A stretch of DNA of 64,000 bases, taken from an uncultured Candidatus Saccharibacteria bacterium. Lineage in GTDB: Bacteria > Patescibacteriota > Minisyncoccia > UBA6257 > Colwellbacteraceae. The position numbers were made by a program, and so were the translations under genes. Positions 3,555 through 56,775 of this stretch are shown piece after piece; within the stretch, counting starts at the first letter, position 1, and each line of letters begins with the position of its first letter. The notes beneath the pieces are model-generated. The model did not search any database, was not told the origin of the DNA, and worked only from the letters and a program-made list of their open reading frames with translations. Where the stretch lies: the NCBI GenBank assembly GCA_964643135.1, contig CAZXPC010000002.1:9049-73048 (forward strand), in the 5' to 3' direction.

Positions 3555-3866
3555 TCAGCATTCGCTGAAACCGCAGGCGGTGCACTTGATGCAGCCTTCT
3601 TGTAGGTACAGGGGAATCCCGCAGTCCGGACAGTCTGGGTTGTCGCCCCTCTGCTCGAGCTCCTTGGTTGTAGGAGCTGTTCTGAACTTTTCCCTCACTT
3701 CTTTTCCGATCTGCTTGACCTTGAGGGTGTACTCAGATGTCCACCGGCAGCGGAAAGTTGCTTCATCGAGAGCGCTTCCGAGGATGTCGAAGTCCTGCTG
3801 TTCTCCATCGGAATCGGTCAGCCTGAAAGAGCCACGTCCGATCTGTTCAATCAAGATCTCACGCAT
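3555..3866 (-). CDS. hypothetical protein with C-terminal CxxC...CxxC zinc ribbon
   Basis: 103 aa ending ...[27 protein letters not shown]-rich, on the same strand as pyrG. The alternative plus-strand ORF 3532-3942 is low-complexity. Confidence 0.45.
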
Positions 3867-3895
3867 TCAGATCTCTGGAATCATAGAACGATTTT

Positions 3896-4027
3896 ACTTA
3901 TTTGTCAAAGAGGCTTTAATCAGCGCCTTAAAAAGCGGATGAGGATTCAAAGGTCTGCTTTTGAATTTGGATATGCGTCGACGTCACTTCGTGCCTTTTT
4001 CAAATGACAGAAAAAAAGAAAAAGCCT
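3896..4027 (-). repeat. degenerate copy (copy 3) of the pyrG 3' end / direct repeat DR-B
   Basis: Minus-strand translation ...FKSRPLNPHPLFKALIKASLTNK* mimics the PyrG C-terminus. 3968-4027 is ~90% identical to 3045-3107. Confidence 0.55.
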
Positions 4028-4086
4028 ATTTTAAAAGCAACTTAGATAAGTAAACATTTTATTTATGTTATAATATTTTTATCGAC

Positions 4087-4557
4087 ATGAGAAATCTTCA
4101 AGTTAGATCAATAATATCTCTAGCGATTTTTCACTTTGTTTTCGTATTGATTATTGTCGGTTTGGTTAGCATCGTTTTAGGCCTTTTCTCAATAGCAACT
4201 GCTATTATCGAGGCGTGGCTAAATAATCTACTTGGATTTGATGCATCTTCTTTGGTTGAGGTTTCTTTATCTGTTCTCGTTGGTGTTATGATTTCGACTC
4301 AAGTCATGGGCAAGAGGGTCGTGATAAAAGAACCGCGTAAACTTGCGGTTTTTTCTACGGTCTGCTTGCTGCTGTTACTAATTGGATTACTATCGGCAGA
4401 GTTTTTGACTGAAGGATTTTTCCCCATGCAATTGGGTTTTTGGATATATATTGTAGCAGGAGTAATTTCTTTTTATGTTTTTAGTGAAATATTTTTAAGG
4501 CAGCAGTCGAAAAAGCAGCTTATTAGTCTGTCAGAGACGCCTTCACTAAGGCCTTAA
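4087..4557 (+). CDS. hypothetical membrane protein
   Basis: 156 aa, four hydrophobic segments, AT-rich. Located between pyrG 3' copies 3 and 2. Confidence 0.55.
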   Translation: MRNLQVRSIISLAIFHFVFVLIIVGLVSIVLGLFSIATAIIEAWLNNLLGFDASSLVEVSLSVLVGVMISTQVMGKRVVIKEPRKLAVFSTVCLLLLLIGLLSAEFLTEGFFPMQLGFWIYIVAGVISFYVFSEIFLRQQSKKQLISLSETPSLRP

Positions 4558-4650
4558 AAAGCGGGTGAGGTTTTAGAGGTCTGGATTTGAATTCGGGGAT
4601 GAGCCGTCGGAGCTTCGCTCCTCCTTCAAAACCCTCGGTTTTGAACATCT
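4524..4650 (-). pseudogene. PyrG C-terminal fragment (copy 2 of pyrG 3' end)
   Basis: Minus-strand translation ...RRLIPEFKSRPLKPHPLFKALVKASLTD* resembles the CTP synthase C-terminus. Lies ~190 bp downstream of the intact pyrG stop. Confidence 0.6.
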
Positions 4651-4719
4651 GGCTGTTGACCAGATTCCGACACGGGGAAACGCACGCCTTTCCCCGACCC
4701 CCTTTGACGGCCCACCCCT

Positions 4720-6402
4720 TTATTTTTGTTTGATGCTGGCTCTCACAAAGGCCTTGAACAGTGGATTAGGTCTGAGAGGTCTGGAGGTAAATTCGGGGTG
4801 GGCCTGGGTCCCTACAAAAAACGGGTGGATTTTTCTGGGTAGTTCCATAAATTCCATGAGGCGTTTGTTGGGGGACTCGCCGGAGAAAACTACGCCGCCT
4901 TTTTCTAAGGTCTCTATATATTGCGGGTTAACTTCGTAGCGATGGCGGTGGCGTTCGGTGATATGTGATGCGCCATAAGCCTCGCGCACAATTGTGCCGG
5001 GTTTTAAGTTGGCCGGGTATGAGCCGAGGCGCATTGTTGCCCCATAATCTTTGTTATTCATTTTCTCAATTTGTTCTGGCAGGATGTCGATAATTGGGTT
5101 TTTGGTTTTTGGGTTCACCTCGGTTGTGTGGGAGTCTTTGAGACCCAAAACATTGCGGGCGTATTCAACAGCGGCGAGCTGCATGCCGTAACAAAGGCCG
5201 AGGTAGGGGATCTTATTTTCTCGGCAATAGCGGATGACGTTGATTTTGCCTTCGACTCCGCGCGCGCCGAAGCCGCCGGGCACGATTATGCCATCAAACT
5301 TATCCAAACTCTTAAGATTTTTCATCGTCCTTCCAGCCGCTGACCCGTAGGCGTCAGCATTAACTGACTCGAAGTCGTTGGAGCTTAGCCATTCAATGAC
5401 CGGAATTGCCTTTTCTGAATAGGCGGCGTGTTTCACGGCTTCGATTACAGATATGTATGAGTCAGAGAGCATAAAGCTGCCGGTCGCGAAATATTTGCCC
5501 ACAATGCCGATTTTAACTTGGCGTTGTTTGCGGCCGGCTTCTTCAATTGAATTGATTAACCCCCGCCAGTCGTGGCCATCTTTCTTTTTCGTCCTCAATC
5601 CAAGTGTTTCCATTACGATTTTATCCACCTTTTCTTCTTTGAAGATCTCCGGCAGGTCATAGATGTTTTTGACGTTGGGCGCTGAGATTACATTTTCCTG
5701 GCGGACGTTGCAGTTGAAAGCAATTTTCTCTTTGCGTTTGTCGTCGAGTGAAGTCTTGGCGCGGGCTAAGATCATATCCGGCTGCAGCCCAACGCTGTTT
5801 AACGAACGCACGGCGTATTGAGTCGGCTTGGTTTTTAGTTCTTGGTCCTCGCCTTGAGAGGGGAGGTAGCTTACGAGTGTTAAAAAGACCGAGTGAGGGT
5901 CTTGGAGTTTCAAAATACGCACGGCTTCCAAGAAAAGCATGTTTTGATACTCGCCGACTGTGCCGCCGATTTCGGTAATTACAACGTCAGCCGATGCTTT
6001 CCTCGCGGCATTCTTGAGTCGGGCAATAACTTCCAGCGGAATGTGCGGCACCACTTCGACGCACTTGCCGTCATATTCAAGATTGCGTTCTTTCTGAATG
6101 ACGTGCAGGTAGACTGAGCCGGTTGTCATATAGTTGGCTCTAGTTAGGTCGACATCTAAGAAGCGTTCGTAGTTGCCCATGTCTTGGTCGGTTTCCAGGC
6201 CGTCGTCTAACACAAAAACCTCACCGTGTTCGGTGGGGTTCATGGTCCCGGCATCAACGTTGATGTAGGGGTCGATTTTAATGGCGGTGACGTTGAGGCC
6301 GTGGAATTTGAGGAGGCGGCCGATCGCGGCTGAGGCGGTGCCTTTGCCGACGCCCGACATTACTCCGCCGACGATAAAGATGTAAGAAGTTTTGTGCGGC
6401 AC
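4720..6402 (-). CDS. pyrG: CTP synthase
   Basis: 560 aa; N-terminal synthetase domain (GGVMSGVGKGTASAAIGRLLK), C-terminal glutamine amidotransferase domain (GLCYGMQ, HPEF). Confidence 0.95.
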   Translation of the reverse strand: MPHKTSYIFIVGGVMSGVGKGTASAAIGRLLKFHGLNVTAIKIDPYINVDAGTMNPTEHGEVFVLDDGLETDQDMGNYERFLDVDLTRANYMTTGSVYLHVIQKERNLEYDGKCVEVVPHIPLEVIARLKNAARKASADVVITEIGGTVGEYQNMLFLEAVRILKLQDPHSVFLTLVSYLPSQGEDQELKTKPTQYAVRSLNSVGLQPDMILARAKTSLDDKRKEKIAFNCNVRQENVISAPNVKNIYDLPEIFKEEKVDKIVMETLGLRTKKKDGHDWRGLINSIEEAGRKQRQVKIGIVGKYFATGSFMLSDSYISVIEAVKHAAYSEKAIPVIEWLSSNDFESVNADAYGSAAGRTMKNLKSLDKFDGIIVPGGFGARGVEGKINVIRYCRENKIPYLGLCYGMQLAAVEYARNVLGLKDSHTTEVNPKTKNPIIDILPEQIEKMNNKDYGATMRLGSYPANLKPGTIVREAYGASHITERHRHRYEVNPQYIETLEKGGVVFSGESPNKRLMEFMELPRKIHPFFVGTQAHPEFTSRPLRPNPLFKAFVRASIKQK

Positions 6403-6472
6403 ATTCTATAATAGCATAACGATAATAAAAAATGCACCAGGCCTAGATGGCTAGAAATTCTGGTGCCGGGCG

Positions 6473-6694
6473 TCAGAAGGTGACAAACCGGAGGCGCTGG
6501 TTTTTCGCATACCAGGTTCGGGTCACGATATCGTCGTGAAACTCGATCCGCGTCCCGGTTGCAAGCCCCCGATATTTCGCGCGGAGGCTATTCAGCGCTT
6601 CGTGGATGTCGCCCCCCGAGGCGTACTTGTTCAGGTCGCCGTCGATGCAAACGTGGACGTCTTGGCTCCGCTTCGTTACGAGGATATGGACCAT
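6473..6694 (-). CDS. hypothetical small protein (GC-rich)
   Basis: 73-aa ORF, ~57% GC against ~45% in neighbours, no motif recognised. Confidence 0.35.
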   Translation of the reverse strand: MVHILVTKRSQDVHVCIDGDLNKYASGGDIHEALNSLRAKYRGLATGTRIEFHDDIVTRTWYAKNQRLRFVTF

Positions 6695-6766
6695 CGAGTC
6701 ACTCCTTACTATTTCAGGCTAGCGATTATACTTTTTATTGTCAATCTGCTAGAATCAGGCCCAATT

Positions 6767-7345
6767 ATGGCCAATAAAGACATTCTCGTAATTGATATCG
6801 AGACCAAAAACAGCTTTGCCGACGTGGGCGGCCAGCACAACCTGAGGAATTTAGACGCCTCGCTGATTTGTGCTTATTCATACAATCAAGACAAGTATTA
6901 CTTAATCCGCGAGGGCAAATTCCACGAAATTTCCGACATGCTGCAAAACGCGGGCTTAATTGTCGGCTTCAGCATCAACCGCTTTGATTTGCCGGTCATG
7001 AATAAATATTACAAATTTAATTTAATGAGTTTGCCGCGCCTGGATTTACTGGATGAGATTGAAAATGCTCATGGCCGCCGGATTAGCCTAGACTTGCTTG
7101 CCAACGCCAACCTGGGCTATGGCAAGACCGGCCACGGCTTAGACGCGATCGAATATTATAAAAAAGGCGACTGGGAAGCGCTTGAGAAGTATTGCCAGCA
7201 AGATGTGAAGGTAACCAAGGAGCTTTACGACTTAGCCAAAAAACAAAAACATCTGCTTGTACCGCAGAAGTGGAATGCCAATCATGTGAAAGTTGAGTTG
7301 GATATTCAGGATGTCCTGATGACCTCGCCGAATACTTTGTTCTAG
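6767..7345 (+). CDS. DEDD-family 3'-5' exonuclease (RNase H-like, PolB-exonuclease-related)
   Basis: ILVIDIETKN (Exo I), GFSINRFDLPVM (Exo II), YCQQDVKVTKELY (Exo III). Start taken at MANKD, preceded by TAGAAT 8 nt upstream. Confidence 0.7.
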   Translation: MANKDILVIDIETKNSFADVGGQHNLRNLDASLICAYSYNQDKYYLIREGKFHEISDMLQNAGLIVGFSINRFDLPVMNKYYKFNLMSLPRLDLLDEIENAHGRRISLDLLANANLGYGKTGHGLDAIEYYKKGDWEALEKYCQQDVKVTKELYDLAKKQKHLLVPQKWNANHVKVELDIQDVLMTSPNTLF

Positions 7346-7379
7346 ATCATTGACAGAGGATAAAAGGCGACCAGATCTC

Positions 7380-8250
7380 AGTTGTTTAGGCTGGGACAAG
7401 GTCGCAGTGATGCGGAACTTAATCCGCTTGGAGTGGCGGCGTCGGATAGGGATTTGAACCCTCGTTCAGGACCCTATTATGTCGGGAAAGATTTGTTCGC
7501 ATGCCTCAGGGCGCTTCAGTTCCACTCGTGCGGGTGATGCTTGCCGCATTTGTAGAACCTTGGCATTCCCGTCTCGGCCTCATAAGCTTACTAGGGCGCT
7601 CCGCGAATACGACCTAAAGACACCACGTGGGCCGGGATATGAACCTCCCGCACCTAATCTACTGGAACCATAGATCCATGATGTGCCGTATTCGTCCTGC
7701 ATACTCCCGTTCGGCAAATTCAGCCTACTTTGCATGCTCGCTCATCCGTCCGTCATCGCGGCTCTCATACCGGGGCATAAGTTCCCTTCAAAACCAGGAA
7801 ACGAACCCCTTCGGAGAATTGCCTTCCCCTGAGACCCAAATGGTAATCTCATAGAGCCGCACTTTTCGCCCTACTATCCTTGCTATCCAATTTCCTGACT
7901 AGTCCTACTTCTCTACGCCCTGGTCGGTCCCCATGGTGAAGGGTGACAATGAGAAGTGGTAGGCCCACGAAAGGGTAGGACGTTTAGGTAAATTGGCTTC
8001 GCACGTAGCCGAGCGATTAGTTCCATCTTGATTCACCGAGCCTTACCGGCCCTCTATCAAGACTCTCTATATCCTTAGCCTTCCGGTGGGTAACCCTCAG
8101 GTTTGAGCCGAGGCACCGGTGCTTTTGGCTGAACTATCGACGCCAGTTGGTAAAGAGCTGTCCGTCGGCTTGCTTCGGGAAAACTCTTCGTTGCATCTTC
8201 ATTCTAGCATGGGTCACTCCTCAGTCAATGAATTGAAAAGAGGCTGGTTG
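7380..8250. other. 870-bp ORF-free region; candidate structured RNA or decayed element
   Basis: No ORF above 75 aa on either strand in an otherwise dense genome. Minus strand carries a tRNA-like T-arm/acceptor/CCA fragment (rc of 7437-7465: GAGGGTTCAAATCCCTATCCGACGCCGCCA). Confidence 0.3.
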
Positions 8251-8571
8251 TGTGATTAACTTCGATTGGTACAAAGGGATGAGATTTTGGAAGCTCCTCC
8301 TGTTTCTCAAGTCCATCGACTGGTCAGCCAAGTCATCTGTCAGCCAGACGGCGGCATCATCATGGCAGTTTGTGTCTGCGGTTGGGTTACCGAACCCAAA
8401 GTCAAAGGCAAGATGCTTGAGGTCGTTCAGATCATCAATCATCACACGGGTGCGGAACTGCGTTTGAAGTTCAGGCTAGACGGGGCGATTGAGGTGGTGG
8501 TTTGATCAGGTCTGGCCGCGGGTTTTTCCCACGGCTTGTTTTTTTTGGGCCTCGCGACTATCGTTTTAGTG

Positions 8572-39677: not shown

Positions 39678-40592
39678 ATGACGATGTTGATTAATCAATT
39701 AAAAACCGTCAAGAGCGGTCTTTTGGTTCCTACTGGGGATCGTAAGAACCCTAGGCCTTTTTTGAAATGGGTTGGTGGCAAATCACAGATAATCGAAAAA
39801 ATAAAAGAGAATCTTCCTCGAGAATATAATCGTTATTTCGAGCCGTTCCTGGGTGGAGGTGCCGTTTTCTTCAAAGCAATTCCCTGGGATAAGCAGGCTG
39901 TCTTGAGCGATATAAATGGCAACCTTGTCGGAGCGTTTAGTGATATAAAAGCAAATTTCGACGAAGTCATTTTTGAGATAAACAACTTGATAAATGGGTA
40001 TAAGAACCTTAGTCCTAAAGGCATGGAGCGATTCTACTACGACAGAAGGGATGAATATAACTCGATAAGAACTCCGAGCGCCTCTATAAAGAGGACTGCC
40101 TTGTTAATTTTTCTTAATAAGACTTGCTATAACGGCGTTTATAGAGAAAACTCTAAGGGAGAATTTAATGTGCCGATCGGGTATAAGACTTTAAGAAATA
40201 TCTTTAACAACGAGAATCTTGAATTGGTTGCTAAGAAACTTAAGTCAGCCAAGATTGTAAACATGAGCTACAAAGATATTCTTGATCAAGCCCAAAGAGG
40301 AGATCTTATTTATCTTGACCCCCCCTATAACCCGCTAACCAAGACTGCCAATTTCACAAAATATAACAGTGCCGATTTTGGGCCCAAGGATCAGATAGAG
40401 CTCAGAGATCTCTTCATGGATTTAGATAATCGAGGATGTTATCTCATCATGAGCAATTCTGATACTGAGTTGACGCGCAGTCTTTACTCTAATTATGCTA
40501 GCAAAATAGTACGGGTTGAAGCTGCGCGTACAGTTAATTGTCACGGATCTTCTCGTAAACCAGTCGGAGAAGTATTGATAAAAAACTTTTAA
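39678..40592 (+). CDS. dam: Dam-family (D12 class) DNA N6-adenine methyltransferase
   Basis: KWVGGKSQ, FEPFLGGGAVFF (motif I), DPPY (motif IV). GATAAT -10 element 7 nt upstream of the ATG at 39678. Confidence 0.85.
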   Translation: MTMLINQLKTVKSGLLVPTGDRKNPRPFLKWVGGKSQIIEKIKENLPREYNRYFEPFLGGGAVFFKAIPWDKQAVLSDINGNLVGAFSDIKANFDEVIFEINNLINGYKNLSPKGMERFYYDRRDEYNSIRTPSASIKRTALLIFLNKTCYNGVYRENSKGEFNVPIGYKTLRNIFNNENLELVAKKLKSAKIVNMSYKDILDQAQRGDLIYLDPPYNPLTKTANFTKYNSADFGPKDQIELRDLFMDLDNRGCYLIMSNSDTELTRSLYSNYASKIVRVEAARTVNCHGSSRKPVGEVLIKNF

Positions 40593-42562
40593 TGGCTAAG
40601 AAGTCTAAAAAGACCACAAGAGAAATAGGTAATGAGTTGCATGATAGAATGCGGATTCTATTTAGTAAAATGGATTTTAGAATTCTAGACAGTGATTATA
40701 ATGCAGAAGGTCCTGATATAGTTATACAAGACGACAGTCTGAAAGTAAAAATACTTATTCAGTGTAAAAAACACGAAGGAGAGGAGAAAACATATTCTGC
40801 AATTTCACGTTTAACCGACGAATATGCTCATAAAGTTTCTAGGATGAAGGCTTCGGCGGCCATCCTAACTCTTTCTGGGTATAAGCCAAGCCGTAGAGTA
40901 AATATTAGTGAAGAAATAAGGACCAAGAAGGTCTCTATATGGACAGACTCCTTGATTGATTATTATGAGGACTTAACGAAGAAGATCGGATTATATGCGA
41001 AATATCAAATGCTTTCTGACCTTGGACTTAAGGTGAGATTCGACAAGGATAAAGAATTTGATGCGATTAAAGTCTCGCAAAATGGCATCGAATTTTATGC
41101 ATTCAAAGCTAGCCCAGAATGGCTGCTAAGATCAGCTGCGGTTGTGCGAAGGATTAATTTAGGAGGAAGGCTAACAGGTTATCAAAGGTTGCTATCTCGA
41201 GATCGCGTAAAAAATAAGATTCCTAAGTTTCTTGATGAAGGCGAGTGGGTATTTCCTAACACGATAATCTTTGCATCAGAGTTGGGATTGGATATTAGGT
41301 ATAAGGATGGGAAGATGATTTTTCCAAGTAAACTAGGCTCAGTTTGGGTTATCGATGGACAACACCGACTCTATTCCTTTGCTAATATTCAGAATTCAGT
41401 TGTTAGGGAGAGCAGCGAACTTCTATGCACTGTTATAGACAGTTCGGCTTTGGGTCAAGACGCAGAAGCTAAGCAGGCATCAATTTTTGTCACTCTAAAC
41501 CAACAAGCCAAAAAAGTAGATAAATCGTTAATATTCGAACTATATAGACTCTTGGGTTTAACTGATCCTGGTGTCGAGATAGCTATTAGACTTTCTGAGT
41601 CGAAATTGTTTAAAGGATTAGTCTCTGGCTATTCAGATAAGGGAGGGTTGATAACGATAACGACGCTCGTCGCTTCGATAAAAAGTTTGATATCTGCTAG
41701 CAATCCGTTGTTAAGGGTTAGGCTAAATGATAGAAACGTTGCTGATATTTTGTTTAACAAATTGTATATTTTTTTCCAGAAAGTTAACAAGGTATTTAGG
41801 AAAGAATGGGGATCTGAAAAGTATATTTTATCAGAAAATAGAGGCGTCGGAGCTTTAATTGAACTATATAATAAGGCGCTCATCTTTTGCAAAAATAACA
41901 ATAAAGATTTGGATAATTATTCTATCAAGCTCCTTGAGTCCCTGAAAAAATCAGGGTTTAATCTCAGTTCGGAAAATCTTAAAGGTCAATACCTCGGTGA
42001 AGGAGGCCCTAGGAAGTTGGCTATGGAGTGGGCTTCTTTAATTACGAAAACAATACCTGGTTTCGAGCCTGGAGTTGAAGAAAGAACAATTGATAAGTTC
42101 TCTTCAAAACACGGGGATCTTCAGGGTGCTGAAAATAAGTTAAAAGACTGGCTCCCAAATCTTAAAGGAGAGATTAGAGGAAAATTGATGCATATTGATC
42201 CAACAACAATTGAATACTTAAGATGCATCCCAAAAGAAACTAATATGAGAATATTCTTTGGAGATGCTGATGAAGAAGCCTTAGTTAGGGAACGTCTTAG
42301 AAAAATGAGGGCCGATGGCTATAAAATAATCCTTACTAAGGCACAGAAGCCTACTAAGGGAAGTCTTTTTCATGAGAGATGGATTGCGTCAGAAGCTTTA
42401 AGGATTCAGCTAAATTGTGATCTAAAGAAACAAGCAATTAAAAACGCAACATATTTCATGTATTTATCAGAATGGAATAAGGCTCCAGAAATTGTTGAGT
42501 TTGATCAGGATTGGCAACAGGCGCAGAGAGAATTTCAATTTGAATATAATTGGGGAGCTTAG
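40592..42562 (+). CDS. fusion protein: N-terminal Mrr-like PD-(D/E)xK nuclease domain + DGQHR (DndB/ParB-like) domain + uncharacterised C-terminal region
   Basis: ATG overlaps the dam stop (TAATG). GPDIVIQDD...KILIQCKK (nuclease motifs II/III), VWVIDGQHRLYSF and FVTLNQQ (DGQHR signature). Confidence 0.65.
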   Translation: MAKKSKKTTREIGNELHDRMRILFSKMDFRILDSDYNAEGPDIVIQDDSLKVKILIQCKKHEGEEKTYSAISRLTDEYAHKVSRMKASAAILTLSGYKPSRRVNISEEIRTKKVSIWTDSLIDYYEDLTKKIGLYAKYQMLSDLGLKVRFDKDKEFDAIKVSQNGIEFYAFKASPEWLLRSAAVVRRINLGGRLTGYQRLLSRDRVKNKIPKFLDEGEWVFPNTIIFASELGLDIRYKDGKMIFPSKLGSVWVIDGQHRLYSFANIQNSVVRESSELLCTVIDSSALGQDAEAKQASIFVTLNQQAKKVDKSLIFELYRLLGLTDPGVEIAIRLSESKLFKGLVSGYSDKGGLITITTLVASIKSLISASNPLLRVRLNDRNVADILFNKLYIFFQKVNKVFRKEWGSEKYILSENRGVGALIELYNKALIFCKNNNKDLDNYSIKLLESLKKSGFNLSSENLKGQYLGEGGPRKLAMEWASLITKTIPGFEPGVEERTIDKFSSKHGDLQGAENKLKDWLPNLKGEIRGKLMHIDPTTIEYLRCIPKETNMRIFFGDADEEALVRERLRKMRADGYKIILTKAQKPTKGSLFHERWIASEALRIQLNCDLKKQAIKNATYFMYLSEWNKAPEIVEFDQDWQQAQREFQFEYNWGA

Positions 42563-52691: not shown

Positions 52692-55490
52692 ATGGAACGG
52701 GGTCCAAGACTAAAAACATCCGAAGAGCTAGCTGAACAGGCAAAATCGGTTTCAGATAGCTTGGGTCAGGAAATTTCTCAACCCTCAAAAAAGAACGAGG
52801 TTTTTAATTTATCTCTCGAAGAAATAAAAGCTAGGTTTCCAAGACGCTACGATATTTATCTGAAAAACCTCAAAGCCAAGAAGGCTGGCAAAGAAATTGA
52901 TCCGGACGAGAAAGAAAAGATGGTTAAATGGCTTATTGTTTTGAATAACCTTGATAAATACATTGAAGCTCATAAATCGGGTGGGGACGTTACTCTACGT
53001 GAGCACCAAATCGGTCCTTTCGAAGCGCTAAGAGATTTTCTTGAAGAAGGAGGGGATGCGGGGCACATCAAACTTCCAACTGGCTCGGGGAAAACAGTTG
53101 TTGGGGCCGAATTCATTGAGGCGACAGGTTTAAAGACTTTAGTGGTTGTCCCAACAAGGACGTTGGTTGGTCAGACCATGGGGCAACTCCAAAAGCATAT
53201 TAAAGGGAGGAAAGTGGGCGCTTATTTTTCAGAACAAAAAGGCTTGACAATGGACGTCGACGTAACGACCTATCAGTCCTTGAAAAACATCGATACCAAG
53301 AAATACGACTTGGTGATTTTTGATGAGGCCCATAAGGCAGAAGGGGAAGATACTGCGAAACTTGTGTCTGAGACTAAATGTATGGTTAAACTTGGCCTGA
53401 CTGCTACGCCCACCAAGAGGACGAGTGAGTTAATGGGTGAAGAAATATATTCGATGCAACTTAGGGATATGATAGAAATTGGAGCCCTTGCTCCATGTCA
53501 GGTTAATCTGGCTAAAGTTAAAAATATTGATACATCGAACGTAACAGTTAATAGGAACGGAGAATATAGCGAAAGCGAGTTGGAAGCCATTTTAAATGTG
53601 CGGCCGGCCAACGAAGCTGCGGTTAAACTATACAAAGAAGGATTCGCCGGCGAAAAGATGATCGCTTTTACTGCTGGGAAATTACATGCTAAAGATTTGT
53701 CAGAACTTTTTAATGCCAGAGGCATAAGAGCGGGATTTATAATTGGCGAGACATCTACTGCTGATAGAGAAGATCTTTTCGCGCGATTTAAGGGTAAAAG
53801 AGTGCTTCGGAATAAAGAAGGCGCAGTGATTGGAGAAGAAATGATTCCGACAGAAGATCAGATTGACGTTTTAATTGGAGCTAGGGTTTTAATCGAAGGT
53901 TTTGATGAGCCTAGGGCCTCAGTCTGCTTCAATATAGTCCCGACTGCCTCTAAAGTTGTTGCTGAGCAAAGGGGCGGCAGAGTTCTAAGAAGGGATGACG
54001 ACAACCCCGGCAAAGAAGCTACTGTGGTTGATTTTGTTTATGAGGGTAAGAATAATAGACAGATATTATTTAGTAGGGTTCTCGGCGGTGCCCGGGTTGG
54101 ATCAGTTGGGAAGTCAGTTTTTGGAGAATCTATTGGTGACAAAGATTATTCGAGAGATAGAGATCAATTCAGAACTAGAGGATTCATTGAAATCGAGGGG
54201 ATAGAATTTATTGTGAATGAGGAAGAGGTTATGAAGGTAGAAAGAAAGATGGATGATGAAGCCTATGATTTTGCCCCTGAAGACTGGAAAACAAACGGCG
54301 GATTGGCGGAAGATATAGGAACCAGTTTCTCAGTTGTTAAAAGGATTGCCGAGAGTGTTCGAGGTGAAAAGCCGGAATGGTTTAGAATTTATAAATTCAA
54401 GGGAGGAAGGGTCGAAGAATATTACAGCCCTGAATTAGTTAAGCTAATCATGGAAGAAGTCCAAGCCAGGGAGGAGGCTCCGGTGGGCTGGAAGACAAAT
54501 GGTTTCGTTGCTAACGTGCTAGATTATGCTCATTCAACGATAAGCAAAATAGCCGATAAATATCGAGTTTCAAATCCAGAATGGTTCAGAAAATACAAGA
54601 TTAAAGCCGGCAGAGTAGAGGAGCATTACGCGCCAGATTTAGTTACCGAAATCAGGCAGGAGCTTGCCTCACGCGAGTTTGCCCCAGAAGGCTGGGTTAC
54701 CAACAAATCGTTATCAAATGAACTTGATGTTGACAAAGGGACTGTCAGGAACAGCGCGAATAGATATCGCGCTGATCATCCCGATATGTTTAGGGTATTT
54801 AAAAATAAACTTGGGCAAATTACAGAGCACTATTCGCCCGAATTAGCCTTGATGGTTAAAAGAGACATCTCAACTCGCGAGAACCGTCCCGAAGGTTGGA
54901 TGACTAACGGAGAGCTCTTTAATGAGCTCGATGTCGATGAGACTACGGTAAAAAATCGAGCCGATCGATATCGAGCCTCACATCCGGATTGGTTTAGGGT
55001 TTATAAGAATAAGACAAATAAGCCCACCGAACACTATTCTCCTGAATTGGCAGCAATCATCAAAAGAGATATTGTGTCATATGAATATGCTCCCGAAGGA
55101 TGGCACATAACCAATGAATTAGCCGAAGGACTTGGCGTTTCAGCGCGGTCGATTCAGAATGAAGCCGAACGACACAGATTCGCTCACCCTGATTGGTTTA
55201 AAAAGTACAAAGTAAGAATGGGACGTGTTTTAGAGCACTATTCTCCAGAGCTTATCTCAATTATTAAGGCTAAGTTTATGGGTCAAGAATTTGCTCCGGC
55301 AGGATGGAGGCCCAATGCACCGCTCGCGTTAGAGCTGGGATCTACCCCATATACTGTAAAGAAGATAGCTGAGAGGTATAGGGCCGCAAACCCAGCATGG
55401 TTTAGACAATATAAGCCTAAAACAGGACCGATAACAGAGTACTACCATCCAGATTTGGTTGAGAAAATTAAAGAAGCTTTAGGAAAATAG
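52692..55490 (+). CDS. SF2 (DEAD/DEAH, ResIII-like) helicase with six C-terminal ~68-aa tandem repeats
   Basis: LPTGSGKT (motif I), DLVIFDEAHK (motif II), helicase C domain. From residue ~520, six repeats of AP.GW.TN..L...L.......K..A.RYR...P.WFR.YK.K.G...EHYSPEL...I. Confidence 0.8.
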   Translation: MERGPRLKTSEELAEQAKSVSDSLGQEISQPSKKNEVFNLSLEEIKARFPRRYDIYLKNLKAKKAGKEIDPDEKEKMVKWLIVLNNLDKYIEAHKSGGDVTLREHQIGPFEALRDFLEEGGDAGHIKLPTGSGKTVVGAEFIEATGLKTLVVVPTRTLVGQTMGQLQKHIKGRKVGAYFSEQKGLTMDVDVTTYQSLKNIDTKKYDLVIFDEAHKAEGEDTAKLVSETKCMVKLGLTATPTKRTSELMGEEIYSMQLRDMIEIGALAPCQVNLAKVKNIDTSNVTVNRNGEYSESELEAILNVRPANEAAVKLYKEGFAGEKMIAFTAGKLHAKDLSELFNARGIRAGFIIGETSTADREDLFARFKGKRVLRNKEGAVIGEEMIPTEDQIDVLIGARVLIEGFDEPRASVCFNIVPTASKVVAEQRGGRVLRRDDDNPGKEATVVDFVYEGKNNRQILFSRVLGGARVGSVGKSVFGESIGDKDYSRDRDQFRTRGFIEIEGIEFIVNEEEVMKVERKMDDEAYDFAPEDWKTNGGLAEDIGTSFSVVKRIAESVRGEKPEWFRIYKFKGGRVEEYYSPELVKLIMEEVQAREEAPVGWKTNGFVANVLDYAHSTISKIADKYRVSNPEWFRKYKIKAGRVEEHYAPDLVTEIRQELASREFAPEGWVTNKSLSNELDVDKGTVRNSANRYRADHPDMFRVFKNKLGQITEHYSPELALMVKRDISTRENRPEGWMTNGELFNELDVDETTVKNRADRYRASHPDWFRVYKNKTNKPTEHYSPELAAIIKRDIVSYEYAPEGWHITNELAEGLGVSARSIQNEAERHRFAHPDWFKKYKVRMGRVLEHYSPELISIIKAKFMGQEFAPAGWRPNAPLALELGSTPYTVKKIAERYRAANPAWFRQYKPKTGPITEYYHPDLVEKIKEALGK

Positions 55491-55613
55491 CTCCGCAGGT
55501 AGGGCACTTCGCTATCTCACTGCTCGGCTAAAGCCTGCGCTTTGAAACCCAGCGGTTTCAATACTTCCGCCACGGGAAAACTCCCGTTTTCCCGACCCCT
55601 TTCCCGTTCGATC
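55490..55613 (-). repeat. tRNA-linked conserved motif plus 15-bp copy of tRNA-Asn 3' end (att-like, minus orientation)
   Basis: rc reads GGGATCGAACGGGAAAGGGGTCGGGAAAACGGGAGTTTTCCCGTGGCGGA ... AAACCGCTGGGTTT ... GATAGCGAAGTG + CCCTACCTGCGGAGC. The core copy overlaps the helicase stop codon. Confidence 0.6.
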
Positions 55614-55670
55614 CCACTGGCGGTAAATACTAAAAAATATCTGACAGATTCAGATATTTTCTAGTATATG

Positions 55671-55971
55671 CTCCGCAGGTAGGGATCGAACCTACGACCA
55701 TCGCCTTACACTTGTCCTATCGTTGCCGTTAGGGGTGGACTATATCATATCCCGTTTCTTACCGGGACCGAGGCGCTTCCGCGCAACTGTTTTGCGAGTA
55801 CTCCCACTAGGGGATAGTCTCTACACCTTCCGAACGAATTGTCCGGCTTGGCTCGGGATTGCCCATTTAAATTAAAAAGGGTTTCCCCGAATTCACCTCG
55901 TTTTTCAAACTAGATTGCTCTAGTAAGCTGCCTTCTGACAGGGCGCCGCTCTACCGCTGAGCTACTGCGGA
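55671..55971 (-). tRNA. tRNA-Asn (anticodon GTT) interrupted by a group I intron
   Basis: Exons 55938-55971 and 55671-55708 splice to TCCGCAGTAGCTCAGCGGTAGAGCGGCGCCCTGT|TAAGGCGATGGTCGTAGGTTCGATCCCTACCTGCGGAG, closely matching a bacterial tRNA-Asn (anticodon loop CTGTTAA). A hairpin (55634-55660) follows the gene. Confidence 0.8.
55709..55937 (-). ncRNA. group I intron (IC3-like) in the tRNA-Asn anticodon loop, no ORF
   Basis: ~229 nt between anticodon positions 35/36. Contains GAAGGTGTAGAGACTA and CGAGCCAAGC core elements as in the Azoarcus tRNA-Ile intron (recalled from memory). U at -1 can pair with intron GCAG (P1); intron ends in G. Confidence 0.7.
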
Positions 55972-56040
55972 ATATTATACACCTAGAATCGGTATTTCTA
56001 GGGTGGTATTAGAGTAGCAAAAGAGTACGGCTACTTCAAG

Positions 56041-56775
56041 TTATGATTTTGGAATCGTTACACTGCTAATTGAATCTGCGGGCAAATCATATTTATGATA
56101 AACCCTTAGGAAAAGCATGGAGAAAACAAGGCAGCTTATTATGAAAATAGGCACGTAATTCTTGGAAATGAATTGGTGCAGGAACGGGTAAAGACCCGTG
56201 AATATTGAATAAATTAAATAATATCGGGCGACCCTAACGATAATTGCCAGCAACACGAAGATTAGCAGGTTGATTCCAAAATTGTGGACTGACAAAACAA
56301 AAACTTTGTAGGGGACTCCGGAAAATGGCTGGAAGAATAAAGCGAATACGCCAAATTGTTGATACCACGAGCCAACTTGCTCGACCATGCCCGCGCTCAC
56401 GTAGGGTATCTTGGTGAGCGGGAAACTGAAATAATAAGATGAAACTAAGCCTAAAACAGTGCCCACGGCTGTCCCCAAGATATCGTAAACCAATAATCGG
56501 ACTTTACTCTTAATTTTCAAAAATATTATGAGCAATAACAGAAACTCCGGGATGACGAACCAGCAGACGGCTTCGGCTGCCGCCCAAAAGAAGACCAAAT
56601 AGTTAGCTTGCGGGCTCGATAAGAAATCTTCGGCGTGCTGATTCAAATGTATGTGGCGAAGTTTGGAATGCGGGTGCTGGATTTTATAGGCCAGATAAAA
56701 AGGCGCGATAAATAGGAGAATCGCCGATTGGATAAAAAGATAATTAAAGAGGAGGTCAGTTAAGCTAAAAGCCAT
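56041..56775 (-). CDS. hypothetical polytopic membrane protein
   Basis: 244 aa, 6-7 TM helices; overlaps the upstream UbiA gene by 16 nt (operon). Confidence 0.5.
   Translation of the reverse strand: MAFSLTDLLFNYLFIQSAILLFIAPFYLAYKIQHPHSKLRHIHLNQHAEDFLSSPQANYLVFFWAAAEAVCWFVIPEFLLLLIIFLKIKSKVRLLVYDILGTAVGTVLGLVSSYYFSFPLTKIPYVSAGMVEQVGSWYQQFGVFALFFQPFSGVPYKVFVLSVHNFGINLLIFVLLAIIVRVARYYLIYSIFTGLYPFLHQFISKNYVPIFIISCLVFSMLFLRVYHKYDLPADSISSVTIPKS

Follow-up and report, generated by a model that had tools for sequence, protein, structure and literature searches.

Bacterial tRNA genes are known to be interrupted by small group I introns, for which four classical classes, all of subgroup IC3, have been extended to 21 classes by Williams (2020, bioRxiv 10.1101/2020.01.27.920355). 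Two of these small introns, those of Anabaena tRNA-Leu and Azoarcus tRNA-Ile, self-splice in vitro (PMC3984707). The seed alignment of Williams includes an intron named Pam37.Asn.4Ug, which resides in the same tRNA and at the same site as the element described here, a group I intron of a tRNA-Asn(GUU) gene carried by a 64-kb stretch of bacterial chromosome (64,000 nucleotides of contig CAZXPC010000002.1, called the window hereafter). This preprint was the only document found in the literature on tRNA-Asn group I introns, published or tested, the report PMC5733544 dealing with other tRNAs and with inserts of 22-49 nt. The gene of the window is, with high confidence, a Parcubacteria-like tRNA-Asn(GUU) of the Candidate Phyla Radiation (CPR), split between U35 and U36 by a 229-nt group I intron of class Asn.4Ug devoid of any open reading frame (ORF). 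This intron is real and apparently intact.

The split gene is located on the minus strand, from 55971 to 55671, and includes three segments:

55938-55971, minus strand, 34 nt: 5' exon, with the acceptor 5' strand, the D arm, the anticodon-stem 5' strand and C32 U33 G34 U35; it ends with CUGU, U(-1) being at 55938.

55709-55937, minus strand, 229 nt: group I intron without ORF (Rfam RF00028), its boundaries being given by helices P1 and P9.0.

55671-55708, minus strand, 38 nt: 3' exon, with U36 A37 A38, the anticodon-stem 3' strand, the variable loop, the T arm, the acceptor 3' strand and G73; it starts with UAAGG.

Read on the minus strand, the 5' exon is UCCGCAG UA GCUC AGCGGUA GAGC G GCGCC CUGU and the 3' exon is UAA GGCGA UGGUC GUAGG UUCGAUC CCUAC CUGCGGA G; the intron starts with CAGAAGGCAG and finishes with GGACAAGUG. 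The joined exons form a 72-nt cloverleaf recognized by ARAGORN as tRNA-Asn(GTT), with CUGUUAA as anticodon loop, and CCA is absent from the gene (GAG/CAU at the tRNA 3' end). The Rfam model RF00028 (Intron_gpI) aligns in full (1-253) with minus-strand positions 55951-55716, at 61.0 bits for a gathering score of 50 (E = 5e-13, computed for the 64-kb window), and a search in E-value mode over 55300-56300 gave no other credible match. No ORF of at least 50 aa is found on the sense strand of the intron, the sole ORF of that size being a 50-aa TTG ORF on the opposite strand.

Most of the original prediction, made from the letters of this DNA, is thereby borne out. It had given the coordinates 55671-55971 without naming the strand, and had described exons assembling into a 72-nt tRNA-Asn, an ORF-less group I intron of 229 nt ending in G (55709), and a U(-1) engaged in P1; both motifs that it had quoted, GAAGGUGUAGAGACUA and CGAGCCAAGC, are found in the intron, and the covariance-model scan that it had proposed gave the match above. 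The insertion site that it had placed between positions 35 and 36 is upheld by the comparative evidence on P1 and P9.0 given below. The intron-aware tRNA scan that it had also proposed was fruitful in part: ARAGORN -i finds the split gene and its 229-nt intron but labels it tRNA-Thr(tgt) i(33,229) rather than tRNA-Asn. With default settings, ARAGORN does not detect the split gene.

Just upstream, an extended -10-like box, TGTATAAT, is found at 55972-55985 on the minus strand and finishes 2 nt before tRNA position 1. If this box is a promoter, transcription would start at the mature 5' end or within it, and the precursor would have no leader or almost none. The promoter scan lists no minus-strand site at 55972-55985.

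Relatives of the intron were sought by scanning species-representative genomes for the pattern GAGACTA N{20,50} AGCGYC N{12,42} ATGAKATAGTCC, which yielded at least 120 loci, 87 of them resolvable. Among the matches listed, the commonest host is a tRNA-Asn split as CUGU/...G/UAA (48 of the 87 resolvable loci). The bearers of these Asn.4Ug introns, again among the matches listed, are mostly CPR bacteria, including many Patescibacteria and Saccharibacteria, and also Cyanobacteria, Acidobacteriota, Nitrospirales, Elusimicrobia, Margulisiibacteriota and deltaproteobacteria; the closest genome homologue among these matches belongs to a Parcubacteria metagenome-assembled genome (locus L016), with 77% identity to the window intron. 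These data show that position 35/36 of tRNA-Asn is a major, phylum-spanning site for small group I introns and no rarity. The original prediction had considered such a host and site as unusual, a view that the existing class Asn.4Ug and the above counts do not bear out. The window intron is nothing out of the ordinary within its class, which is already catalogued and abundant in CPR bacteria.

Two types of Asn.4Ug introns can be distinguished by the region between helices P7 and P3'. In type A (n = 32), which includes most CPR members and the window intron, two hairpins are arranged as P7.1-GUA-P7.2. In type B (n = 17), whose bearers include cyanobacteria, Acidobacteriota and proteobacteria among other groups, this region holds a single long hairpin containing a GAGGAnCC...AAUAA motif, and these introns resemble the Williams seed. 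In 44 metagenome contigs, a tRNA-Asn gene was found that has the same anticodon arm and no intron; filled and empty intron alleles therefore coexist among related organisms, which fits sporadic gain or loss and is no proof of mobility. On a short metagenome contig (L151, 1642-1803), two such intronless tRNA-Asn genes stand in tandem, 132 nt apart.

The structure of the intron was written from the window sequence and scored on an alignment made with MAFFT (A1), which comprises the window intron and 32 homologues of at most 265 nt. It contains the following helices, the percentages referring to A1:

55928-55941, minus strand: P1, exon CUGU and intron C1 with the guide GGCAG, closed by an AGAA loop; the wobble between U35 (55938) and G (55931) marks the 5' splice site (sequence, minimum free energy fold and covarying pair).

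55909-55924, minus strand: P2, ACUAGA/UCUAGU, with a GCAA tetraloop (L2); six of six pairs compensatory, 97.5% of cells paired.

55769-55900, minus strand: P3, CGAGGUG (55900-55894) with CGCCUCG (55775-55769); three pairs covary and four are invariant, 99.6% of cells paired.

55853-55890, minus strand: P4, UCGGGG/UCCCGA, with J3/4 AAU and J4/5 AAA; double changes at four pairs, 99.5% paired.

55881-55862, minus strand: P5, CCC/GGG, enclosed by P4; 86.7% paired.

55825-55852, minus strand: P6, GCC/GGU, 100% paired, and P6a, CCGGA/UUCGG, with double changes at five of five pairs.

55738-55819, minus strand: P7, GACUA (55819-55815) with UAGUC (55742-55738), the guanosine-binding helix, in pseudoknot with P3; invariant in 33 of 33 aligned introns, with the same sequence in Azoarcus.

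55802-55814, minus strand: P7.1, UCCC/GGGA, with a 5-nt loop; in 32 of 32 type A relatives.

55782-55796, minus strand: P7.2, CGCAA/UUGCG; a hairpin in 32 of 32 type A relatives.

55749-55768, minus strand: P8, GUCCCG/CGGGAU; double changes at five of six pairs, 89.4% paired.

55716-55733, minus strand: P9, CCUAACG/CGAUAGG, with a GCAA tetraloop (L9) and one A.A mismatch; double changes at six of seven pairs.

55710-55736, minus strand: P9.0, AC (55736-55735) with GU (55711-55710), directly 5' of the terminal G, or omega-G (55709); 100% paired.

This structure is well supported by covariation. Standard pairs amount to 91.9% in A1 versus 70.7% in shuffles, and cells changed on both sides number 452 versus 136. 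The covariation score of 0.552 compares with 0.161 for shuffled alignments, is reached by none of 500 shuffles, and falls to 0.117 or less when partners are slid by 1-3 columns. Several compensatory pairs are present in each of P2, P3, P4, P6a, P8, P9 and P9.0, and this covariation in seven helices adds to the Rfam score in establishing the group I identity. MAFFT misaligned the U of CUGU, as well as the region of P7.1/P7.2; the helices concerned score 63.8%, 73.3% and 28.1% and were analysed separately. The window copy itself keeps 52 of the 53 scored core pairs and matches 73 of the 75 columns conserved at 90% or more, both exceptions being the two sides of a single P8 pair (C-G to G.U). Folded as a single sequence, it yields P1, P2, P3, P5, P6, P6a, P8 and P9 in its minimum free energy structure (z = -3.2).

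The 37 nt standing between P7 (GACUA) and P3' are an insertion in the Rfam match, and they fold into P7.1 and P7.2. Among the type A relatives, P7.1 occurs in eight stem variants, with four of four pairs in 30 of the 32, and P7.2 always has 5-9 bp although all 32 sequences differ. Tetraloops and their candidate receptors, whose types were read from alignment columns, also vary together: a GAAA in L9 accompanies a CYUAA motif in P5 (15:4 versus 2:12, Fisher p = 3.6e-4, uncorrected for phylogeny), and a GAAA in L2 accompanies this motif in P8 (5:3 versus 2:23, p = 0.004, likewise uncorrected). The window intron carries GCAA in both L2 and L9, and its receptor helices are C-G-rich (CC:GG), a combination in agreement with the preferences of GNRA loops for helices.

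The splicing steps proposed for this intron are those established for group I introns. The exon CUGU and intron C1 would pair with the internal guide GGCAG to form P1, offering the U35.G wobble to a catalytic core made of P3-P9, in which P7 would be the guanosine pocket. An exogenous guanosine would attack after U35. The 2-bp P9.0 would then bring the last G of the intron (55709) into that pocket, and the freed 3'-OH of U35 would attack the 3' splice site, releasing the 72-nt tRNA with its CUGUUAA anticodon loop. The fold would be clamped by GNRA tetraloops, L2 on P8 and L9 on P5, as in the Azoarcus IC3 intron, and P7.1 and P7.2 would pack beside the guanosine site as in the Twort phage intron (PMC1995217). 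Because no convincing P10 can be drawn, the exons are probably held together by the tRNA anticodon stem, which would align both of them as in the Anabaena tRNA-Leu intron (PMC3984707). From the conservation of the intron, we infer that it is self-splicing.

Several points weigh against reading the locus as a tRNA-Asn gene with a functional intron. The first three pairs of P1 and the whole of P7 are invariant in A1 and thus bring no covariation signal either way. P1 has only 5 bp, no convincing P10 accompanies it, and the P7.1 loop has 5 nt in the window, a tetraloop being present in most relatives. The literature yielded neither RNA data nor a splicing assay for this or any other Asn.4Ug intron. 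Only the 64-kb window of the genome is visible; ARAGORN finds no second tRNA-Asn within it, but others may lie outside it. Finally, when the spliced tRNA is compared by BLAST with those of E. coli, its body matches tRNA-Thr and tRNA-Arg best (E ~1e-3), a cross-phylum comparison that speaks neither for tRNA-Asn nor for tRNA-Thr.

The alternative that survives best, although improbable, is that of a genuine group I intron that is inefficient alone and needs a host or phage protein as cofactor. Protein-assisted group I introns are well known, and a short P1 (5 bp) with no evident P10 would suit such a dependence. The window intron nevertheless has the same tetraloop-receptor clamps as the small bacterial tRNA introns tested, plus the reinforcement of P7.1/P7.2, and no candidate cofactor gene adjoins the intron-bearing locus. 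Those introns, from Anabaena tRNA-Leu and Azoarcus tRNA-Ile, self-splice in vitro (PMC3984707).

A decayed intron that no longer splices, leaving a tRNA pseudogene while an intact tRNA-Asn is encoded elsewhere in the genome, is less probable still. Against it, the window copy keeps its core pairs and conserved columns with only two deviations, which compensate each other, and its exons give a perfect cloverleaf. In its favour, splicing is predicted from sequence, only 64 kb of genome are visible, and the 44 metagenome contigs with an intronless tRNA-Asn of the same anticodon arm indicate that intron-free alleles circulate in related organisms. The absence of any other tRNA-Asn from the window argues the other way, as does the fact that CPR genomes are small and usually carry single copies of their tRNA genes.

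There remains the register in which the gene is read. With GU just after the 5' junction and UG just before the 3' one, a same-length intron placed 2 nt further 5' (CCCU/GU...AAG/UGUAA, positions 33/34) would also show U at -1 and a terminal G, and the gene would become a tRNA-Thr(UGU). The P9.0 pairing discriminates between both registers. In all 49 sequences examined, the window included, the 2 nt after UAGUCC pair with the 2 nt before the omega-G of the Asn register, in 10 combinations (AC/GU, AU/AU, GC/GC, AA/UU, GU/AC, AG/CU and others), whereas the Thr register allows this pairing in none of the 49, which fixes the 3' splice site. At the other end, the first nucleotide of the intron and the base 5' of GCAG, which form the pair beside the U.G wobble, covary in 42 of 49 sequences (A-U 17, G-C 13, C-G 8, U-A 2, G.U 2). 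Moreover, at least 12 of the 48 split tRNA-Asn homologues have no G at the shifted position, so that only the Asn reading is possible there.

The termini of the tRNA point to the same identity. All 49 genes start with UCC/UUC or a close variant and end with ...GAG, giving U1-A72 and G73. The termini of the E. coli tRNA-Asn are identical (U1-A72, G73), the E. coli sequence used for the comparison being 100% identical to genes annotated tRNA-Asn. Unsplit tRNAs in the fetched related loci include two tRNA-Thr and no tRNA-Asn, and both tRNA-Thr have G1-C72 with U73 or A73. The tRNA-Thr alternative, to which the ARAGORN -i call and the E. coli BLAST lend some colour, would further pair U33 with a guide A as a plain U-A in place of the U.G wobble; contradicted by the comparative sequence data, it can be regarded as excluded and is by far the least probable of all.

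The tRNA-Asn gene with its Asn.4Ug intron can be compared with described systems in detail. Like the window intron, Pam37.Asn.4Ug is hosted by tRNA-Asn as CUGU/intron...g/UAA, with U at -1 and an omega-G. Both share the blocks GGUGAAUUC, GAGACUA, AGCGCC and AUGAKAUAGUCCACCCC as well as a nearly identical 3' end (...CCACCCCnAACGGnAACG...AAGUG, the P7'-P9-omega region), and both have an extra helix block between P7 and P3', for 59% identity over aligned columns. The seed differs by the long hairpin of type B, an extra P2.1-like hairpin and a longer P6a. The tRNA-Ile(CAU) intron of Azoarcus sp. BH72 (IC3; Ile2.5Ug) is also small, ORF-less and located in the anticodon loop; it shares the core blocks AAUUCGG.GAAACC, GGCAA..CCGAGCCAAGC, GAAGGUGUAGAGACUA and AUAGUCC, and has GNRA-capped P2 and P9 with receptors in P8 and P5. 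However, it is inserted in tRNA-Ile after position 36, has 49% overall identity to the window intron, uses GAAA loops with 11-nt receptors instead of GCAA loops with C-G-rich helices, and presents only GA (2 nt) between P7 and P3', without P7.1/P7.2, against 37 nt in the window. The cyanobacterial and chloroplast tRNA-Leu(UAA) introns (IC3; Leu.3Ug) have the same general core and an anticodon-loop location but stand at U34/A35, lack P7.1/P7.2 and have experimentally demonstrated self-splicing. Two hairpins between P7 and P3' are found, as in the window, in group IA introns of phages (Twort orf142-I2, T4-type phages) and in introns of the T loop of transfer-messenger RNA (tmRNA); these differ by their location, protein-coding genes for some and the tmRNA T loop for others, and by the homing-endonuclease ORFs that they often carry.

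The subgroup traits of the window intron are mixed. The core blocks (J3/4-P4, J5/4-P4'-P6, J6/7-P7, P7') and the L2-P8 and L9-P5 contacts of the window intron are those of IC3 introns. A short J7/3 devoid of P7.1/P7.2 is a further IC3 trait; the window intron lacks it, and has the P7.1 and P7.2 that lie between P7 and P3' in IA introns. In the alignment of Williams (2020), the four classical classes accord with the short J7/3 as an IC3 trait, the P7-P3' helix block being absent from them and present in Asn.4Ug, Lys.2Ug, Phe.2Ug, Leu.1Ug and tmRNA introns. The original description of the intron as IC3-like, modelled on Azoarcus, consequently holds for the core and the clamps and fails for the 37 nt of the P7.1/P7.2 module. 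Asn.4Ug introns thus show a mixture of IC3-like and IA-like structural modules. In phage introns, P7.1 and P7.2 pack around the guanosine pocket of the Twort intron (PMC1995217), and at least 120 viral contigs of IMG/VR bear the signature GAGACUA...AGCGYC...AUGAKAUAGUCC, nearly always outside tRNA genes. About six of the 124 viral matches listed lie in split tRNAs, two of these being Asn.4Ug, and all 14 sampled matches are group I introns according to Rfam. A wider reading, which we consider doubtful, is that the type A Asn.4Ug introns of CPR bacteria form a distinct subgroup of tRNA introns, combining an IC3-type core and clamps with IA-type P7.1/P7.2, with an ancestry shared with the phage introns bearing the signature, and that the split gene may be the sole tRNA-Asn of its genome.

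The 3' end of the tRNA gene is itself the site of an insertion. An exact 15-nt direct repeat, CCCTACCTGCGGAGC, is found at 55684-55670 and 55504-55490 on the minus strand, as CCCUACCUGCGGAGC, the tRNA 3' end plus one base, recurs exactly 180 nt downstream; two copies occurred in none of 100 shuffles. The repeats flank a non-coding insert of 165 nt. It consists of a hairpin resembling a terminator and of a ~115-nt structured module, in which the T-loop recurs in inverted and degenerate form as GGGAUCGAAC. The hairpin, AT-rich and perfect over 18 bp (ACUAGAAAAUAUCUGA-loop-UCAGAUAUUUUUUAGU), has flanking U/A tracts and lies at 55627-55667, directly 3' of the tRNA and between convergent genes. It is likely a bidirectional terminator, which the terminator consensus scan missed because it demands at least three G-C pairs. 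The downstream structured element has no Rfam match in E-value mode, and its right arm has no match in the viral-contig scan. Its reading as a tRNA, a tmRNA or a T-arm was rejected for either strand, as ARAGORN finds none and the stems are not complementary.

A homologous element follows an intronless tRNA-Asn in the metagenome loci L138 (79% identity) and L160 (71%), the repeat matching the own tRNA of each organism; because L138 and L160 are intronless, the insertion does not depend on the intron. Two internal hairpins have another sequence in L160 yet stay hairpins. L138 and L158/L141, from strains ~95% identical, offer a filled and an empty site, and the sole difference between L138 and L158 at this site is the insertion with its 15-nt duplication. 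In L021, L034, L052 and L066, tRNA-Asn is followed by inserts of 150-230 nt that are unrelated in sequence yet built alike. After the tRNA-Asn come a terminator hairpin, the tRNA 3' end in inverted orientation (perfect over 11-22 nt in L052 and L066), ~100-150 nt, and then the last 13-15 nt of the local tRNA, repeated in direct orientation. Direct repeats of longer range (1.5-11 kb) in L106, L142 and L146 may mark full-size islands. The 165-nt insertion looks like a miniature non-autonomous integrative (CIME-like) element, with the tRNA-Asn 3' end as attachment (att) site; its putative att sequence is CCCUACCnnnnGGAGC.

The window is a segment of bacterial chromosome encoding ClpB, PyrG, MurF, a short IF-2, RNase Y, PlsY and CdsA. 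The closest named relatives of PyrG come from Candidatus Colwellbacteria (69%) and other Parcubacteria/Paceibacterota, in keeping with the CPR-like context suggested at the outset. Next to the insertion, positions 52692-55490 (plus strand) encode a 932-aa helicase of ResIII/DEAD type with a weak GntR/HTH-like match. Its C-terminal half is made of about six tandem repeats of ~70 aa (APEGW.TN...PEWF..YK...G...EHYSPEL), and one base of its stop codon is shared with the second copy of the tRNA 3'-end repeat. Further away, positions 40592-42562 (plus strand) encode a 656-aa protein with a DGQHR domain (DndB/DpdB-like), in the 2-kb segment of lowest GC content (40001-42000, 0.376, most others being at 0.43-0.54); this region may be a fragment of a defence island. 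Among the viral contigs, L168 (IMGVR_UViG_3300045988_080363) has, within 5 kb (3568-8458), a group I intron accompanied by two Hatchet ribozymes and one RAGATH-9 RNA, and in the viral locus L171 (7609-8193) a group I intron abuts a tmRNA match, probably as an intron-split tmRNA.

The main value of the finding concerns annotation. As default tRNA finders miss the split gene, the genome would seem to be without tRNA-Asn. In intron-aware mode, ARAGORN -i takes about 20 of the 48 Asn.4Ug genes among the matches listed for tRNA-Thr(tgt/cgt), placing the intron 2 nt away, and it reports tRNAs with a CAU anticodon that are split at position 5 as tRNA-Gln or tRNA-Arg. Such calls amount to a systematic error in the annotation of tRNAs split by group I introns, a general problem already noted by Lui et al. 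2021 (PMC8172020), and a missed or mislabelled gene distorts both the tRNA complement of a CPR genome and the checks of its completeness. The two registers are cleanly separated by P9.0 and by the P1 pair beside the wobble, which could be used in annotation pipelines, and the compact, well-conserved 229-nt copy of the window is a reasonable substrate for a splicing test. If the ancestry shared with phage introns is true, it would indicate that introns of phage mRNAs and tRNA genes of hosts have undergone exchange. If the split gene is the sole tRNA-Asn of the organism, guanosine-dependent self-splicing would be obligatory, and potentially regulatory, for the decoding of Asn codons.

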